A stretch of DNA of 24,811 nucleotides from an uncultured Thermoleophilia bacterium (GTDB lineage: Bacteria; Actinomycetota; Thermoleophilia; UBA2241): assembly GCA_964393265.1 (NCBI GenBank), contig CAYMTC010000001.1, positions 1 to 24,811 on the forward strand, in the 5' to 3' direction. Shown here piece after piece: positions 17,733 to 24,784 of the stretch. Numbering within the stretch: position 1 is the first letter of the stretch; each line of letters begins with the position of its first letter. The notes beneath the pieces were generated by a model. It was not told where the DNA came from. It saw nothing but the letters and a program-made list of their open reading frames with translations, and made no database searches. The position numbers and the translations under genes were made by a program.

Positions 17733-18601
17733 CCGTACACATCCACGACGTACTGGACCAGCTCCTCCGCAGCATCGATGCCCGTGGCGCCCTTGAGAGC
17801 TCGCCAGCCCGGTATGGAGTTCACCTCCAGGACACGGTAGACGTCGTCCTCGCCAGGAAGGATGTCCACGCCGGCGTACTCGGCGCCCACCGTACGGGCC
17901 GCCCGCAGGCTGAGGTCGCAGAGGTGGTCGTCCGGATCGAGCGGGATGCTGCGCGCCCCTTGCGCTGCATTGGTCTTCCAGCTGGTGCCGCGCCGTATCA
18001 TGGCGCCGACGACGCGCGGACCGATGACGAACACGCGGATGTCCTCGTCCCGATGGGGGACGAACGCCTGCAAGTAGTACACGTACCGTCCCAACTCCAG
18101 GGCCCGGAAGGCGCGATACGCGGAGTCCGGGTCCGAGACGCGGACCATTCCCTTGCCCTCGGAGCCGAAGAGGGGCTTGAGCACGACGTCGCCACCGAGC
18201 TCCTCGAACGCTGCCAGAGCGTCTTCGAAGCGCTCGACGACCACCACTGGCGGTGTGGGAAGGCCCTCGGCGGCCAGCAGAGCTGTCGTGTAGTACTTGT
18301 CAACGCCGCACTCGATGGACCTGGCCGAGTTGATCACCGGCGTGCCGTTGCGCTCGAGCTCCCGTAGCGCGTCCATGCGGAAGATGACCTGCTCTAGGGA
18401 CCCTGTGGGGATGGCCCGTACGAACACCACGTCCATCCCGTCGAGCGACACGCCGTCGGCGTGCAGGCTCGGCGTGTCGCCGGCCCGTGCGACAAGGCGT
18501 GTGACTGGTACGACCTCGGTGGCTATGCCTTGGGCGCGGAGCGCCCCGAGCAGGCTCTCAGTGTGCCAGCCGCCGTTCTGTCCGAGGATCGCGGCTTTCA
18601 A
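17729..18601 (-). CDS. RimK-family alpha-L-glutamate ligase (Orf5/MyfB or MptN-like)
   Basis: VRAIPTGSLEQVIFRMDAL, DKYYT, VLKPLFGSEGKG, DIRVFV, WKTNAAQG, LEVNSIPGW; TTGA overlap with the mch stop. Confidence 0.9.
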   Translation of the reverse strand: MKAAILGQNGGWHTESLLGALRAQGIATEVVPVTRLVARAGDTPSLHADGVSLDGMDVVFVRAIPTGSLEQVIFRMDALRELERNGTPVINSARSIECGVDKYYTTALLAAEGLPTPPVVVVERFEDALAAFEELGGDVVLKPLFGSEGKGMVRVSDPDSAYRAFRALELGRYVYYLQAFVPHRDEDIRVFVIGPRVVGAMIRRGTSWKTNAAQGARSIPLDPDDHLCDLSLRAARTVGAEYAGVDILPGEDDVYRVLEVNSIPGWRALKGATGIDAAEELVQYVVDVYG

Positions 18602-19569
18602 CTGAGCAGAGAACGCTCGAGGAGATCCGCGTCAACGACGCCCGCCTGGACCGTACGGCCGCTGAGACTACTGGTGAGGAAGACCTCCGCCGGGCTGAAC
18701 AGCAGGGGGTCGATCTTGTAGAAGTCGCCACCGTAACGTTCGAACAGCTCTTTGAAGGGCACACCATGGTCGCGGGACGCCGCTGCAGGCAGCCGGTCGA
18801 TGACCGACGCGATCGCGTCGTCCTCGGCCTGCACCGTGTACCAGGAGCGCCCGCCGTAGAGGACGGCGTCGTTGGTGCGTCCTATCGCCGACAGGTCGTC
18901 GCGCGCCACAGGCGCCATGGGACACACCCCGAAGCCGGAGCGCACTGTGCCGATGTCAAAGCCTACCTCGTGCATCTTGTGCAGACCTGTCTCCACGATG
19001 CGCGCGGCGATCTGTACCGACCCCACGAGGCTTGCTGTGGGAGCCACCAGCAGCAGCAGTGAGCCCGCCGGCACGCCGCACTTCTTAGCCACCCAGGCGA
19101 CCGCCTCGTCGGTGGGCAGCTGCCGCGACTCGAGCGTGAGCACCGCTCGCGAGGCCGTGTCCTTGTATCCCAGGTCCTCGAAGAGCTGCTCGCCACAGTA
19201 CAGAGCGCGGGCCGGCCCCGAGCCCATGGCGAAGTAGCCCGGCGTCGACTCACTGCGCGGGACGTCGATGGCCCAGCCCGCGTACTGCGACGCCATGCAC
19301 GCCAGTACAGGCTGTCGTACGTCCACCTCGACACCCGGTAGCACCAGCGCGTCGAGTCGGACCTCGCACAGCCGGACGTCACCCAGGCCGCCGAGGCACA
19401 CCTCCGCGAACAGACGGCCCGCTTCCAGTGAGCCCGGCACCTCGACGCCGGCGTCCACGACCGTGGCGCCGCTGGCGAGCTGGTGCACTTGTAGAGCCAA
19501 GGCTTCTGCATCCTCGACCATGCGGTCGACGATGACGGCTGCTCGATCATTCAGACTGATCACGGACAA
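18598..19569 (-). CDS. mch: Methenyl-H4MPT cyclohydrolase
   Basis: MGSGPARAL, LTLES, APTASLVGSVQIAARIVETGLHK, GRTNDAVLYGG, KIDPLLFSPA; TTG 19569 (or GTG 19563) after GAGGGGAG. The ORF-track extension to 19776 is not protein-like. Confidence 0.96.
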   Translation of the reverse strand: MSVISLNDRAAVIVDRMVEDAEALALQVHQLASGATVVDAGVEVPGSLEAGRLFAEVCLGGLGDVRLCEVRLDALVLPGVEVDVRQPVLACMASQYAGWAIDVPRSESTPGYFAMGSGPARALYCGEQLFEDLGYKDTASRAVLTLESRQLPTDEAVAWVAKKCGVPAGSLLLLVAPTASLVGSVQIAARIVETGLHKMHEVGFDIGTVRSGFGVCPMAPVARDDLSAIGRTNDAVLYGGRSWYTVQAEDDAIASVIDRLPAAASRDHGVPFKELFERYGGDFYKIDPLLFSPAEVFLTSSLSGRTVQAGVVDADLLERSLLS

Positions 19570-19813
19570 GCATCTCCCCTCTGCGGCCTGTGCCGCGGTC
19601 GTCCGCAGAGCACTCGAGGTCGCCCTAAGGACCCTCCGCCAGGCCGTCGCATTCCAGGTCGGCTCAGTGCCGGCACGAAGCGGCGCACGATGGCTGGAGG
19701 CCATTGACGTGCGCACCGCCAGACCGGTGACATGGTGACAGGGCCGCCAGCGACGCGTTGATGGCGCGCACATCACCGCGCACGCGTGGCCAGCACACCC
19801 TGCGCCTCGCTCG

Positions 19814-20698
19814 CTAGCTGAGCAGCGCGTGGAGCGGGAACTGGTACTGCCCCAGCTCCCCGCCGTAGTTGCCCGCCGAGATGCGGGTGACTCCGGGGCG
19901 ACATGCGGCTCTCATGCCCACGCGCATGGCATCTCCGACCGCATCCTCGGTGAGGCCGTCGACCACGATCTCGAGCACGGCGTTCTCATCGGGGCCGAGC
20001 GGCGAGTCCACCTGCCCCTTGAGCGTGGGGCAGTAGAACGTGTTGCTGGACACGTGCTGACCCTTGTACATCGACGAGACCTTACTCCCGCTGCGCACGA
20101 CGCCTCCCGGGAAGGGCATGATGACGCCTGGGACACTGCGCATGGCCTCCACAGCCGCCTCGGCAGCGCCCAGAGCCTCAGCGATCCCGGTGGCCATGAT
20201 GAAGAAGTTGCCGCCGCCCACTGCCTTACACACCCCGAAGCTCTCGTCGATGACGAACTCCCCGTCCATCACCGGCACGCGCCACAGGCGCCTGCCGTCG
20301 ACCAGCTTGCTGCGCTGGAAGCCGTCGCCGAAGTACCGGAGCTTGCCGCCGACCTTGAGACGCTCGTCGGCCTGCAGACCGTTGTAGCAGGCCGACGTGG
20401 CCGAGGTCATGATGCTCTGCCCGATGCGCGCCAGCAGCTGCTGCTCCATGCTCTTGCGAGAGGTGGTGAAGATGAGGACGGCCACGCCCGGCCTGCCGTC
20501 TGGCGTCGCCTCGTCGGGGGGCAGCGTGTTGACACCGGCCTCGCAGCCGCAGCCGATGATGGACGTGGCAAAGCCAGTCGCCGAGGCCGCCGCGGTCTGA
20601 GCCCACGAGAGAGTGTCTGCTGTGACCACGAGCCGGGCACCCCACATGCCAAAGGCTTCCGCAAAGGTGTCTACGATCTCCACACCGTCGATCTTCAT
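19814..20698 (-). CDS. ftr: Formylmethanofuran--H4MPT N-formyltransferase (Ftr/FhcD)
   Basis: GVEIVDTFAEAF, GFATSIIGCGCEAG, TPDGRPG, RYFGDGFQ, PVMDGEF, GGGNF, FPGGVVRSGSK, YCPTL, EIVVDG, ISAGNYGG. Confidence 0.96.
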   Translation of the reverse strand: MKIDGVEIVDTFAEAFGMWGARLVVTADTLSWAQTAAASATGFATSIIGCGCEAGVNTLPPDEATPDGRPGVAVLIFTTSRKSMEQQLLARIGQSIMTSATSACYNGLQADERLKVGGKLRYFGDGFQRSKLVDGRRLWRVPVMDGEFVIDESFGVCKAVGGGNFFIMATGIAEALGAAEAAVEAMRSVPGVIMPFPGGVVRSGSKVSSMYKGQHVSSNTFYCPTLKGQVDSPLGPDENAVLEIVVDGLTEDAVGDAMRVGMRAACRPGVTRISAGNYGGELGQYQFPLHALLS

Positions 20699-22161
20699 CA
20701 GGTCCCGGCTCCTTTCCCAGAGACTGTGCCGTCGTACGCCGTCACGCCGCCCGCTTTGGCTGCCTGAGCAGGGTCTGTGTCCGCGGCACTACTCGATACT
20801 TCTCGTGGCGCATCGTCAAGGTACCCCCAACGGAGACCCGACTCTTGCGTGTACCTCTTGCCAAGAAGGACGGCAAGCGCGGCCCGCTCCAGTTCGCGCC
20901 CCATGTAGAACGCGTGCCCTGGGTCGGAGATCTCCAGCTGCTCGAAGAGACGCTGGGGGTCTGTACCACTGACGAATGTGTCACGATTGAACACGTACAC
21001 ACGCTGCGCGTCGGCGAAGATGCGGTAGTGCCGGTCCCGTACCCTGCTCTGCATGTCGCGGAGTTCGACCTCCGTGTACGGACGAAACGGCACATCCTTG
21101 AGCGCTATCAGGCGGTCATCGATGGACTTGGGCAGGACGCTGTTGGTGCGCGCGTAGTACATGAGCCTGCGCGCGACGTCGAGTTCCCGTACGGCGCCGC
21201 GACACCAGCTGATCACCTCGGTCGTAAGGACGTAGTCGATCTGCAGCTCGGTGAACACGCCGGCGATGACAGCGTTCACGCCATGGCTGTCGGCGTCGAG
21301 GAGCTCGGTGAGGTTGCCCACGCCCATGAGCATCTCCGCCGTAGGGTACCGGCGACGCACCTCCTGGAAACGGACCACCGACTCGGTGAAGCCCATGCCC
21401 AGCGGATCGAGGATGGGATCGAGGACGTAGGGCGCACCAAGCTCCGCCACCGTCTGCACGTTCCGCTCGAGCGAGTCGACGCCCTCACCGAAGTCCGGGA
21501 CCACCACGACCTTGCAGTGCAGGTGGGGAACGACATCGATGTTCTCGGAGTTGACGCTCAACACGAGGTCTACCCCGGCGTCGTCCGCCTCCCTGATCGT
21601 GTCACTATGGAACGTGTCGATACTGACGACGAAGCCGCGCTCCTTGAGTGCCGCGACCGCGTCTCCGACGCCCACGAACGGCTCCATAGGCGGACATCCG
21701 AGGTCGATGATGTCGGCGCCCTGCGCGCGGTAGCGCTCGGCCTCCGCGAGGATGCTTTCGAGAGACAGGTGCCACGCCTCGACGATCTCGGCAAGCAGCT
21801 TGATCTTGTACGCGCCGTAGCCGTGGAGCTGGGGCTCCTGGCCGTAGAACCGCGGCAGGTCGCGGAGGTCCTTTGGACCGCGTACCACGGGGACGCCGAC
21901 CTGTCGCTCGATGACGGACAGATCGCCACGACAGAGACCCGGGATCACGACCAGCTCGCAGCCGCGCGCGTCGTGCAGACGCCGCGCTATCCACTCCGTG
22001 CGCATGAGCGCAGCGACCGAGCCATTGAGGACGGCTGTCTCGTATGGGAAGTCCGGGGCCAGGCGTTCGAGCGTGAGCTGGAGCGCCGCAGCAGCCAGCC
22101 GGCCGGTGACGAAGAGCGTCTTTGGCACTGCCTCGTCGCTTTGGCTCAAGGGGCCAGCCAC
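20698..22161 (-). CDS. Dihydropteroate-synthase-like protein of methanopterin biosynthesis (Orf20; DUF6513 + pterin-binding barrel + C-terminal DUF4346-like)
   Basis: LFVTGRLA, VAALM, GPKDLRDLP, GADIIDLGC, LDPILDP, MLMGVGNLTELLDADS, TTEV, HAFYMGRELERA; TGATG coupling to ftr. Alternative start GTG 22128. Confidence 0.88.
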   Translation of the reverse strand: MAGPLSQSDEAVPKTLFVTGRLAAAALQLTLERLAPDFPYETAVLNGSVAALMRTEWIARRLHDARGCELVVIPGLCRGDLSVIERQVGVPVVRGPKDLRDLPRFYGQEPQLHGYGAYKIKLLAEIVEAWHLSLESILAEAERYRAQGADIIDLGCPPMEPFVGVGDAVAALKERGFVVSIDTFHSDTIREADDAGVDLVLSVNSENIDVVPHLHCKVVVVPDFGEGVDSLERNVQTVAELGAPYVLDPILDPLGMGFTESVVRFQEVRRRYPTAEMLMGVGNLTELLDADSHGVNAVIAGVFTELQIDYVLTTEVISWCRGAVRELDVARRLMYYARTNSVLPKSIDDRLIALKDVPFRPYTEVELRDMQSRVRDRHYRIFADAQRVYVFNRDTFVSGTDPQRLFEQLEISDPGHAFYMGRELERAALAVLLGKRYTQESGLRWGYLDDAPREVSSSAADTDPAQAAKAGGVTAYDGTVSGKGAGT

Positions 22162-23123
22162 TCTTCCAGCGTGATGTGCCGCTCTACCGGCGCCCCGCCG
22201 GCGAGCTCGTGACGGATGTCGCCGAGGGTGCCGTAGCGCTCGGCGAAGGCGTTGTGGTCGTGGATGCCTTCGAAGTTCTCCTGACGAGCGATGATGAAGT
22301 CTTCGTCAGGGAGGTTGGGGTAGGCAGCCACGGCAAGGCGCAGCATCTCGCGCACAGCGTCCTCGACGAAGCGCGGATTGCGGTGCGCCTTGTCCACCAC
22401 GTAGAGCTCGTCCGGACGCTTGAGCAGCTCGTAGATCTCCGAGCTCATCGACTGCTCGACGAGCTTGACGAGGTCCTCGGCGCGGAGCGACTCGCGCGAG
22501 CCCACTAGCAACGTGCCGCGTCCTCGCTGGTTATGCGAGGCCACAGGCACGACACTGAGGATGCAGCTGATCTGGTCCTCTGTGAACCCCTCTTGCAGCA
22601 GCTGCTCGCGGGACTGCGCCCGTACCATGTCCTGAGCGCAAGGACACACCGTGAGCCCGTTGACCTCGACACCGACCACCAGCCGTGTGGCATGGGGAGT
22701 GGCGGCAGCGATGCCGACGAGCGTGTAGAGCTGCTCGGTGGGACGATCCGTCACGGGAGTGCGGCGCACCAGAGGGGATTGGGTCTTGATCCGTACCTCG
22801 GCGCGATACGCCGCCTGCGTAGCCACGATCTGCTCTGCCATGCGGCTGGCCAGCGACTCGATGTCGGGGAACGGCCTGCGCGTGAAACCCTCGGCAAGCC
22901 CTTCCACCACCTCGCTGAAACGCGACATGTGGACACCGGCATACTCGGGACTGAGATCAGCGAAGAGATCGATGCTGGCGTAGAAGAGCTGAGGCTTGTT
23001 GCCGGCATTGATCGAGATGATGCGACGTAGATCGGTGACGCCCGCGCGGCTCAGTGCCACCGGCACAGCCGGCCGCGCATTCTGTGTGTCTCTGAGAGTC
23101 ATCTGCGGAGTGCTCTGTTCCAT
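22146..23123 (-). CDS. mptA: GTP cyclohydrolase, archaeal MptA type (FolE2/MptA family)
   Basis: GVHMSRF, CPCAQ followed by a long helical insert, then SHNQRGRG, YELLKRPDE, NPRFVEDAVR, ENFEGIHDHNAFA. Confidence 0.88.
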   Translation of the reverse strand: MEQSTPQMTLRDTQNARPAVPVALSRAGVTDLRRIISINAGNKPQLFYASIDLFADLSPEYAGVHMSRFSEVVEGLAEGFTRRPFPDIESLASRMAEQIVATQAAYRAEVRIKTQSPLVRRTPVTDRPTEQLYTLVGIAAATPHATRLVVGVEVNGLTVCPCAQDMVRAQSREQLLQEGFTEDQISCILSVVPVASHNQRGRGTLLVGSRESLRAEDLVKLVEQSMSSEIYELLKRPDELYVVDKAHRNPRFVEDAVREMLRLAVAAYPNLPDEDFIIARQENFEGIHDHNAFAERYGTLGDIRHELAGGAPVERHITLEEWLAP

Positions 23124-23130
23124 CGCCCGC

Positions 23131-23613
23131 CTACTTGCCTGTGCTCGCGAGGGCCTCGGTACACACGAGGTGACCGTAAGCGACCGCGCAGCTGCCGAAC
23201 AACAGATCCATGTCAGTGCGCCGTATCACGGCTTTCGCTAAGTCGGACTGCCGGGACTCGGTGGGTACGATATCTCTGCCTGACTCGATGGCCACGCCGC
23301 TGTTCATCCACCCGTCCCGCGTCGTACAGCACCGGCTGTATCGGGGGAAGCCGTGCGAAGGCGTGGGGGCCTTTGACCCGGCGTCGCTCTGGTCGACAGA
23401 GACCGAGATCTTGGCGTCCGCATTGACAGCCTCCGCCACTTTGGCGGCTTCCACCAGGGTAGTGTAGCCCATCTTGGAGTGCGCGCACTCCGTGATCGGC
23501 GACCCGGCTACGGTGCCACCTGTGGCCGAGGCCAGACCGTGCTCACGGCCGCTGTCCAGGTCGACACGCTGCTCACGACCGCGCCCGGCGACCGGCCTGA
23601 GCCGATGGCTCAC
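23131..23613 (-). CDS. Hypothetical protein, 160 aa, no recognised family
   Basis: AGGAGGT SD (23625-23619) 5 nt before GTG 23613; stop lies 7 nt before the mptA ATG; fills the operon slot exactly. Confidence 0.55.
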   Translation of the reverse strand: MSHRLRPVAGRGREQRVDLDSGREHGLASATGGTVAGSPITECAHSKMGYTTLVEAAKVAEAVNADAKISVSVDQSDAGSKAPTPSHGFPRYSRCCTTRDGWMNSGVAIESGRDIVPTESRQSDLAKAVIRRTDMDLLFGSCAVAYGHLVCTEALASTGK

Positions 23614-24784
23614 GAGCCACCTCCTCTCGCTGCTCGATCTCGGCGTAGACAGCCGCCACCTGGTCAAAGAGGTCGCGCATACATGCCGCGCGGCCGTCGC
23701 CATGGGCGAGGACCGTGCAGACGGGATGGCCGGGCTTGAAGATCTGCGCCGGCCGCGGTACGTCACGCAGGCCACGGAGCAGCCAGTGGTCCGTGTCCGG
23801 CGCGGCACTCACCCGTCGCGCAAAGACGACACCCTTAGCGTGACAGCCAGCCGCTGGCCAGGCCGGAACCGCCTCGGGAAGCCTGCCCTCCAGCGCCTCC
23901 AGGTGGAGCTTGAAGACGTTCACCCCGTAGGCGCGTTCTATGAGCTCCAGGGAGGCTGAAGGCCGAGGGTTGACCTCGACCAGGTGAGCCTCGACGTCGC
24001 CATCCGACAGCGGCGTGACGACCAGGTCGAGACCGTTGAGCCCCACCAGCCCGAACCGCGCGGTAAGGAGCTGTGCCATGTGTGCCACGCGCTCGTAGAG
24101 TGCGTCGCCAGCGGCGGCCACGGTCGGCGTGGGACCCAGCGCGAGCGGCAAGACATTGCCACACCACGCGAAGCCGCTCGCGCCCAGATCGTGCCGGCCC
24201 AGGAGCTGTTCCGTGAGGCCAAGCAGCACGCAGTCGCGTCCGTCGGCGACAAAGGCCGCGGAGGCCGCCACGCCCTCTATACGCGCCTGCAAGAAGTGGT
24301 CGCCGTCGATGGGCTCCCCACGCCACGGTCGTACTCCGTGGCCGCCGCCACTGCGGATCCGCTTGCGCAGCCAGACACGTCCGTCAGCGGCCTGCGACTC
24401 CTCGCCCGAGAGGAGGGTGGGCGGGTAGGCGATCCCCACCTCGCCGCAGAAGCGCCGCAGGACACGCTGATCGCGCACCTGTTCGAGCGTCGCCGCGGCG
24501 TTGCCCCGCACCCTGCGGTGCTGGGCAAGTCGCCGCACGGCTTGCGGATGGTTCTCAAGATTGGCGCCGTAGACGACTGCGTCAGCAGGGATGCGCAGCG
24601 CTGCCTCGACCAACCCGTCGGCTGTCATGGGCAACGCAAGGTCTCGAGGCAGCGCGTAGCTCTCTGCCACGCGTTCCTGATCACGGTCGCCGAAGAAGTC
24701 GGCGGCGGCGGCACGTACCCCGCCTGCCGCCGCCGACTCGGCGATCATCCGCGTGCTGACGCCGATGAGAAGGACGCGGTCTAC
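23573..24784 (-). CDS. ATP-grasp carboligase of the OrfY/MyfA (COG2232-like) family
   Basis: RVLLIGVSTR...DFFGDRD, GANLENHP, KRIRSGGGHGV, LQARIEG..AS, GLNGLD, VEVNPRPSASLE, GHPVCTV. The conserved N-terminus lies upstream of ATG 24748; the only SD-supported position is GTA 24784. Confidence 0.85.
   Translation of the reverse strand, partial: VDRVLLIGVSTRMIAESAAAGGVRAAAADFFGDRDQERVAESYALPRDLALPMTADGLVEAALRIPADAVVYGANLENHPQAVRRLAQHRRVRGNAAATLEQVRDQRVLRRFCGEVGIAYPPTLLSGEESQAADGRVWLRKRIRSGGGHGVRPWRGEPIDGDHFLQARIEGVAASAAFVADGRDCVLLGLTEQLLGRHDLGASGFAWCGNVLPLALGPTPTVAAAGDALYERVAHMAQLLTARFGLVGLNGLDLVVTPLSDGDVEAHLVEVNPRPSASLELIERAYGVNVFKLHLEALEGRLPEAVPAWPAAGCHAKGVVFARRVSAAPDTDHWLLRGLRDVPRPAQIFKPGHPVCTVLAHGDGRAACMRDLFDQVAAVYAEIEQREEVAREPSAQAGRRARS

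Follow-up and report, generated by a model that had tools for sequence, protein, structure and literature searches.

The mptA locus

The sequence analysed here comprises 24,811 nucleotides from an uncultured Thermoleophilia bacterium of the Actinomycetota (assembly GCA_964393265.1, contig CAYMTC010000001.1, positions 1 to 24,811 of the forward strand), and this whole stretch is referred to as the window. It lies on contig C1 of a metagenome-assembled genome (MAG), G000, which amounts to 2.09 Mb in 343 contigs and is 83% complete. We focus on mptA, the gene of a GTP cyclohydrolase of the MptA subfamily, which belongs to a tetrahydromethanopterin (H4MPT)/methanofuran one-carbon island of this soil bacterium. 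The main features of the locus are collected in Table 1.

Table 1. Features of the mptA locus (coordinates refer to the window)
Feature	Position (nt)	Strand	Remarks
mptA, MptA-subfamily GTP cyclohydrolase (COG1469/PF02649)	22146..23123	-	ATG start, 325 aa
CPCAQ, 31-residue helix-turn-helix insert, SHNQRGRG	22515..22646	-	residues 160-203 of the mptA product; between invariant Cys160/Cys162 and His197
orf20-type dihydropteroate synthase (DHPS)-like protein	20698..22161	-	GTG start; DUF6513 + Pterin_bind + DUF4346
fhcD/ftr, formylmethanofuran:H4MPT formyltransferase	19814..20698	-	TIGR03119, 403.7 bits
mch, methenyl-H4MPT cyclohydrolase	18598..19776	-	TIGR03120, 392 bits
ATP-grasp ligase (orfY-like), upstream neighbour of mptA	23573..24748	-	PF02655
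fhcA/fwdA remnant, between the ATP-grasp gene and mptA	23197..23469	-	tblastn, 91 aa, 34% identity to residues 275-365 of FhcA from relatives

The start of the DHPS-like gene overlaps the 3' end of mptA by 16 nt, and the two genes are probably co-translated. Island loci of Thermoleophilia and Desulfobacterota retain this pair wherever enough downstream sequence is available. With regard to homologues of the mptA product, those at least 55% identical and with long enough flanks are all located in the same island, including those of Dethiosulfatarculus sandiegensis and other Desulfobacterota, and island genes are absent from the surroundings of those sharing 45% to 49% identity, which come from Miltoncostaeales and other Thermoleophilia.

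Affiliation with the MptA subfamily

The Pfam family PF02649 spans the protein from end to end (219 bits, E 1e-64, in a Pfam profile search). Both this family and the bimodular T-fold are shared with the FolE2 enzymes, or GTP cyclohydrolases IB (GCYH-IB), such as those of Neisseria gonorrhoeae (3D2O), Nitrosomonas (2R5R) and Ilumatobacter (P0271). At the subfamily level, the protein scores 284.2 bits (E 1e-84) with the NCBIfam hidden Markov model (HMM) TIGR00294, "GTP cyclohydrolase MptA", above the cut-off of 220, and 139.9 bits with the FolE2 equivalog NF010200, below the cut-off of 215. Among the controls, only proteins from Methanocaldococcus jannaschii, Haloferax volcanii and Methanosarcina acetivorans exceeded the TIGR00294 cut-off.

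An earlier note on this DNA had read the sequence as CPCAQ followed by a helical insert of about 30 residues and SHNQRGRG, and this description proved exact: CPCAQ occupies residues 160-164, exactly 31 residues come next, and SHNQRGRG covers residues 196-203. Counted from CPC to HNQ, the spacer comprises 34 residues in the mptA product and in nearly all the MptA-type proteins matched by the motif, with a few between 20 and 38, about two dozen rows lying outside the pattern. The corresponding spacer is 9 residues long, as CPCSKAISDYGAHNQR, in 12 out of 12 FolE2 proteins collected, the MptA-type insert being about 25 residues longer than its FolE2 equivalent. In the AlphaFold2 model of the mptA product (mean predicted local distance difference test, pLDDT, of 93), the spacer forms a helix (161-177), a turn and a second helix (182-191), and HMMER alignments with the solved FolE2 structures are interrupted at this very site. 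All of the 19 positions that are invariant in MptA-type and FolE2 proteins alike are retained, including C160, P161, C162, H197, Q199, E239, E285 and H288. The top structural matches of the model in the Protein Data Bank (PDB) are all GCYH-IB (FolE2) crystal structures, with template modelling (TM) scores of 0.84-0.87 on the target. Sequence and structure comparison found no MptA structure in the PDB, a lack that has also been remarked on in a 2026 paper (PMC13397572); the insert may have a part in product specificity.

The phylogeny was examined with two trees, one of 110 rows and the other of 49 rows under a site-heterogeneous model, both obtained by quick searches with support from the Shimodaira–Hasegawa-like approximate likelihood ratio test (SH-aLRT) only. 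Tree labels apply to the rows that could be named, a clade of high guanine–cytosine (GC) content (P0143, P0164 and others) lying outside the labelled set. The split between FolE2 and MptA-type proteins receives 100% SH-aLRT in both trees, and the branch between them is very long: a root placed on it leaves about 1.5 substitutions per site to either side. In this comparison, which the earlier note had proposed, the mptA product groups with the MptA-type proteins, far from FolE2; tree, HMM cut-offs and insert thus all bear out the claimed identity as MptA rather than FolE2.

Within the MptA-type part of the trees, the rows identified as archaeal (Methanobrevibacter, Asgard groups and Micrarchaeia) either constitute the basal lineages or branch among them, and the named bacterial rows are all on one side of a single branch (97-98% SH-aLRT). 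The bacterial subclade of the mptA product sits beside or within archaeal diversity. The protein itself belongs to a clade of Thermoleophilia island sequences (99-100%), which is in turn embedded in a group of FolK-fused proteins (96-97%), and the bacterial radiation includes Thermoleophilia, Desulfobacterota, Spirochaetota, Caldisericota, Eremiobacterota and Synergistota. By its placement in these trees, the mptA product is archaeal-type by subfamily, yet part of a broad bacterial radiation.

Compared with MptA from M. jannaschii (MJ0775; GTP cyclohydrolase IV, EC 3.5.4.39; TIGR00294), the Thermoleophilia protein scores above the cut-off of the same HMM, has the same spacer of about 34 residues and the same invariant Cys, His and Glu columns, and clusters with the named archaeal MptA proteins, away from FolE2. 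It differs from the archaeal enzyme by its position in a bacterial clade (98% SH-aLRT) apart from the named archaeal sequences, and by its genomic partners, no MptB, MptD or MptE having been found in the MAG, where FolB and FolK are present instead. Three features set it apart from FolE2/GCYH-IB, namely, the score under the NF010200 cut-off, the spacer longer by 25 residues and the very long separating branch. Its role may nevertheless resemble that of FolE2, as the only GTP cyclohydrolase I found in a genome without detectable folE that carries folB, folK and folP.

Loss of folE and probable link to folate

G000 encodes a single copy each of FolP, FolB and FolK, side by side on contig C27. 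No folE was detected in this MAG, either as a PF01227 match or by tblastn with FolE from G139, a genome of the same genus (best E = 0.5). In G139, and in G074, G080 and G119 from the same family, the genes follow the order ftsH-folE-folP-folB-folK, then nadA/B. The equivalent junction is assembled in G000, and because it holds only 163 bp between ftsH and folP, we conclude that folE has been deleted from a conserved site, which in turn makes the MptA-type enzyme likely to be the sole GTP cyclohydrolase I of this bacterium. The earlier note had placed methanopterin synthesis on a branch separate from folate; the empty folE site, the failure to find folE elsewhere in the MAG and the single folP-folB-folK set speak against such a separation.

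The folK gene of G000 has a peculiarity of its own, since FolK (HPPK) and the quinolinate synthase NadA are encoded in one uninterrupted 507-residue frame (L058; C27:8643-10166, minus strand). The G139 sequence aligns continuously across both parts, and that of G074 aligns as two pieces. Judging from these alignments, a FolK-NadA fusion in the genus of G000 and G139 is possible.

At the level of the class, we surveyed 151 Thermoleophilia genomes including G000, all the others being at least 90% complete. MptA is present in 79 of them and FolE in 91, with 26 genomes possessing both, 53 MptA only, 65 FolE only and 7 neither. Mch, a marker of H4MPT, is restricted to 7 out of 151. FolK, present in 143 genomes of the sample, occurs in 52 of the 53 MptA-only genomes and is lacking in six of the seven with neither cyclohydrolase. 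This complementarity, together with the FolK pattern, indicates that the MptA-type enzyme in Thermoleophilia mainly replaces FolE and is in this capacity unrelated to methanopterin. The available flanks of non-island Thermoleophilia MptA genes contain no adjacent folP, folB or folK, so they provide no operon evidence.

A further observation concerns folE in G432, the island-bearing Thermoleophilia genome that contains locus L011. There, the gene is split over two frames (C3:974861-975398, model positions 2-130 and 127-178), which may reflect a frameshifted pseudogene in decay or a long-read assembly error.

FolK-MptA fusions

The proteins that branch beside the island clade are fusions of FolK and MptA; they are about 484 residues in length, and HPPK is their precomputed Pfam domain. 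Their FolK portion shares 40% to 42% identity with FolK from G000. Fusions of about 460-500 residues are numerous (P0080-P0119, P0121-P0129; L030, L032, L034, L037, L054) and are distributed among Desulfobacterota, Spirochaetales, Caldisericota and Eremiobacterota, some of the genes being part of H4MPT islands. Three Desulfobacterota genomes harbouring an N-terminally extended island mptA yielded no folE, the similarity of the extension to FolK being confirmed in L030. On sequence grounds, these fusions are a Rosetta-stone link between the cyclohydrolase lineage and the bacterial pyrophosphokinase.

A proposed pathway with a common pterin pool

We can propose a scheme, which we consider likely, in which the MptA-type enzyme, as the sole GTP cyclohydrolase I, would feed both folate and methanopterin synthesis via FolB and FolK. 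The mptA product is predicted to be active and to open the imidazole ring of GTP, giving a phosphorylated 7,8-dihydroneopterin, from which a putative phosphodiesterase or phosphatase would release dihydroneopterin. FolB, then FolK, would convert the latter to 6-hydroxymethyl-dihydropterin diphosphate. FolP could draw on this common pool for folate, and the DHPS-like orf20 product could do so for H4MPT, together with beta-ribofuranosylaminobenzene 5'-phosphate (beta-RFAP) derived from MptG.

Several points weigh against this scheme. MptA from M. jannaschii, to our knowledge the only one characterised, makes the 2',3'-cyclic phosphate and requires MptB (cited in PMC8305020), an enzyme for which no equivalent was identified in G000. 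In the family of G000, MptA occurs only together with the island (G074, G080 and G119), and these three other island-bearing genomes keep folE; a dual role is therefore not general for the island enzyme, which was probably an add-on at first, G000 alone having come to depend on it. Furthermore, in a MAG that is 83% complete and dispersed over 343 contigs, unassembled DNA might contain a folE that has moved or an mptB that has diverged, and the island contig, C1, is joined to the contig of the fol genes, C27, by binning only.

Product of the bacterial MptA-type enzymes

The first of these points raises the question of the product. The MptB model TIGR00295, exceeded only in two methanogen controls, gave at best 28.8 bits for a cut-off of 172 in G000, and none of the 151 class genomes, 79 of which carry MptA, has an MptB over the cut-off. 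Two HD-domain candidates, C249 and C158, were rejected, their 24-29 bits on the MptB model being far under it.

It is conceivable, although we lean somewhat against it, that the bacterial MptA-type clade yields 7,8-dihydroneopterin triphosphate in the manner of FolE2 and FolE, which would make MptB needless. Such a product would fit the lack of MptB in 79 out of 79 MptA-bearing Thermoleophilia sampled, the pairing of the enzyme with FolB, FolK and FolP in MptA genomes, the existence of FolK-MptA fusions where folE was not found, and the fact that the bacterial proteins form a clade apart from the named archaeal sequences. However, the insert, which is the clearest sequence difference between MptA and FolE2 in this comparison, is equally long in the bacterial and archaeal clades, and this would argue for MptA chemistry in both. 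A comparable situation has been described in haloarchaea, where MptA occurs without a recognised MptB and the absence is treated as a pathway gap, not as a changed product (PMC8305020). Like the Thermoleophilia enzyme, HVO_2348, the MptA of Haloferax volcanii, is of MptA type and has no recognised MptB, and it serves the common pterin trunk including folate, as the Thermoleophilia enzyme probably does (PMC8305020 for HVO_2348); it differs in being archaeal, in a host devoid of methanopterin, whereas the Thermoleophilia enzyme is encoded in an H4MPT island in a genome that also has FolB and FolK. In the literature searched, we found neither biochemical data for bacterial MptA proteins nor a description of FolK-MptA fusions. 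A triphosphate product and a diesterase other than MptB would be equally consistent with the FolK fusions and with MptB being missing throughout.

Alternative routes to folate and methanopterin

Retention of folE in island-bearing relatives suggests another arrangement, in which MptA would be a second, island-dedicated cyclohydrolase boosting the pterin supply for H4MPT, and folate would be made through a folE that exists in G000 and was left unassembled or unbinned. Five genomes (G074, G080, G119, G100 and G431) do combine an island MptA with folE, and the completeness of the MAG leaves room for a missed gene. We nevertheless regard this arrangement as unlikely, since folE in the same genus and family is always located between ftsH and folP, precisely where the G000 assembly is continuous over 163 bp, and no folE fragment was found in the assembly. 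Moreover, a single FolB and a single FolK would cause the two pools to merge.

Far less probable still is a complete archaeal MptA-MptB-MptD-MptE route that would serve methanopterin alone, apart from folate, and have its other genes beyond the window; this corresponds to the entry route proposed in the earlier note. Passing the MptA equivalog model, carrying the MptA insert and lying in the H4MPT island are all features that such a route would share, and an incomplete MAG might lack its other genes. The note had already found mptB, mptD and mptE unrecognisable in the window, and searching the whole MAG was no more successful: besides the low MptB score given above, neither MptD (PF04038) nor MptE (PF01973) had any match in G000, and MptE-like sequences in the class sample amounted to marginal partial matches in 3 out of 151 genomes. 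Incompleteness of the MAG does not account for the missing archaeal genes, because the class genomes at least 90% complete also lack MptB over the cut-off, and MptE apart from those marginal matches. The genome search that the note had suggested thus recovered folB and folK, and failed to recover mptB, mptD, mptE and folE. The folB, folK and folP genes of G000 are bacterial and single-copy, the sister proteins are fused to FolK and not to MptE, and no folE was found to sustain a folate branch of its own. Searches of the genome and of the class sample therefore largely refute the archaeal route, and the downstream pterin route is probably bacterial, through FolB and FolK. A bypass of FolB by PTPS-III was also considered, and a search of G000 for PTPS/QueD (6-pyruvoyltetrahydropterin synthase, PF01242) found none.

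Finally, nothing supports a mis-binning of C1 with respect to C27, whose GC contents (67.4% and 65.9%) compare with a genome mean of 67.1 +/- 1.4%, whose tetranucleotide distances are typical, and of which C1 is, in its non-island half, 72-83% DNA-identical to same-family genomes.

Significance for pathway reconstruction

The MptA-type assignment is correct but already standard annotation, bacterial members including the mptA orthologues being annotated as MptA or GTP cyclohydrolase IV by NCBI and JGI. What is added here is the folE deletion, the complementary distribution of FolE and MptA in Thermoleophilia, the FolK-MptA fusions and the question of dephosphorylation. For pathway reconstruction, the correction is that an "MptA" annotation in a bacterium is no proof of an MptB/MptD/MptE route or of a branch dedicated to one cofactor. 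A concrete gap is also exposed, namely, the removal of the phosphate(s) from the bacterial MptA product, which the natural FolK-MptA fusions and the G000 genome with its folE deletion are well suited to address.

A broader proposal, for which we judge the chances to be evenly balanced, is that a large bacterial MptA-type clade, covering the six groups of the radiation and including many FolK-fused members, has replaced FolE as general GTP cyclohydrolase I and uses FolB and FolK without MptB. Either its product would differ from the archaeal one, or a non-homologous phosphodiesterase acting on dihydroneopterin cyclic phosphate would exist. In the lineage of G000, folE would then have become superfluous, and free to be deleted, once the island had been acquired with an MptA of its own.

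Organisation of the island

In proteobacterial methylotrophs, the corresponding island displays the order orf19-orf20-afpA-orf21-orf22 (PMC3615186), and the presence of H4MPT genes in Actinomycetes and Deltaproteobacteria has been remarked on previously (PMC5020050). The Thermoleophilia island resembles the methylotroph one in that a cyclohydrolase-like gene immediately precedes a DHPS-like orf20, with afpA and mptG close by. It differs by its actinobacterial host, by its merging with methanofuran genes and by the loss of fhcB and fhcA; in addition, folE was not found in G000, so the role of the enzyme probably extends beyond H4MPT. The orf19 product was reportedly recognised as a COG1469 member by Kalyuzhnaya and co-workers in 2005.

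After the DHPS-like gene, the order is fhcD, mch, an MptN-like ligase gene, a CitG-like gene and MfnD-, MfnF- and MfnE-like genes. Beyond the window (C1:24822-27980) are mtdB, an open reading frame (ORF) of 234 residues, mptG (beta-RFAP synthase, 157 bits) and the gene of an AfpA-like flavoprotein. An orthologue of the ATP-grasp ligase, 39% to 59% identical, is encoded upstream of mptA in most island loci. In relatives, the gap between these two genes holds fwdD-like, fhcB and fhcA genes, all three of which have been lost from the G000 island except for the FhcA-like remnant. A second, divergent fwdD-like/fhcB/fhcA/fhcC set, sharing 36% to 51% identity with the island type, is present on contig C119 of G000.

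In relatives, the DHPS-like gene is also separated from fhcD by a DUF1464 gene, and fhcD from mch by fhcC (L011:8305-9435 and L011:10376-11233). The window island has neither DUF1464 nor fhcC at those sites (window positions 20698 and 19776-19814), and no DUF1464 was found anywhere in the MAG. As regards mch, the listed ORF includes an N-terminal extension of 73 residues before the Mch domain, and relatives align only from about position 19563; these alignments suggest that translation probably begins downstream of the first GTG.

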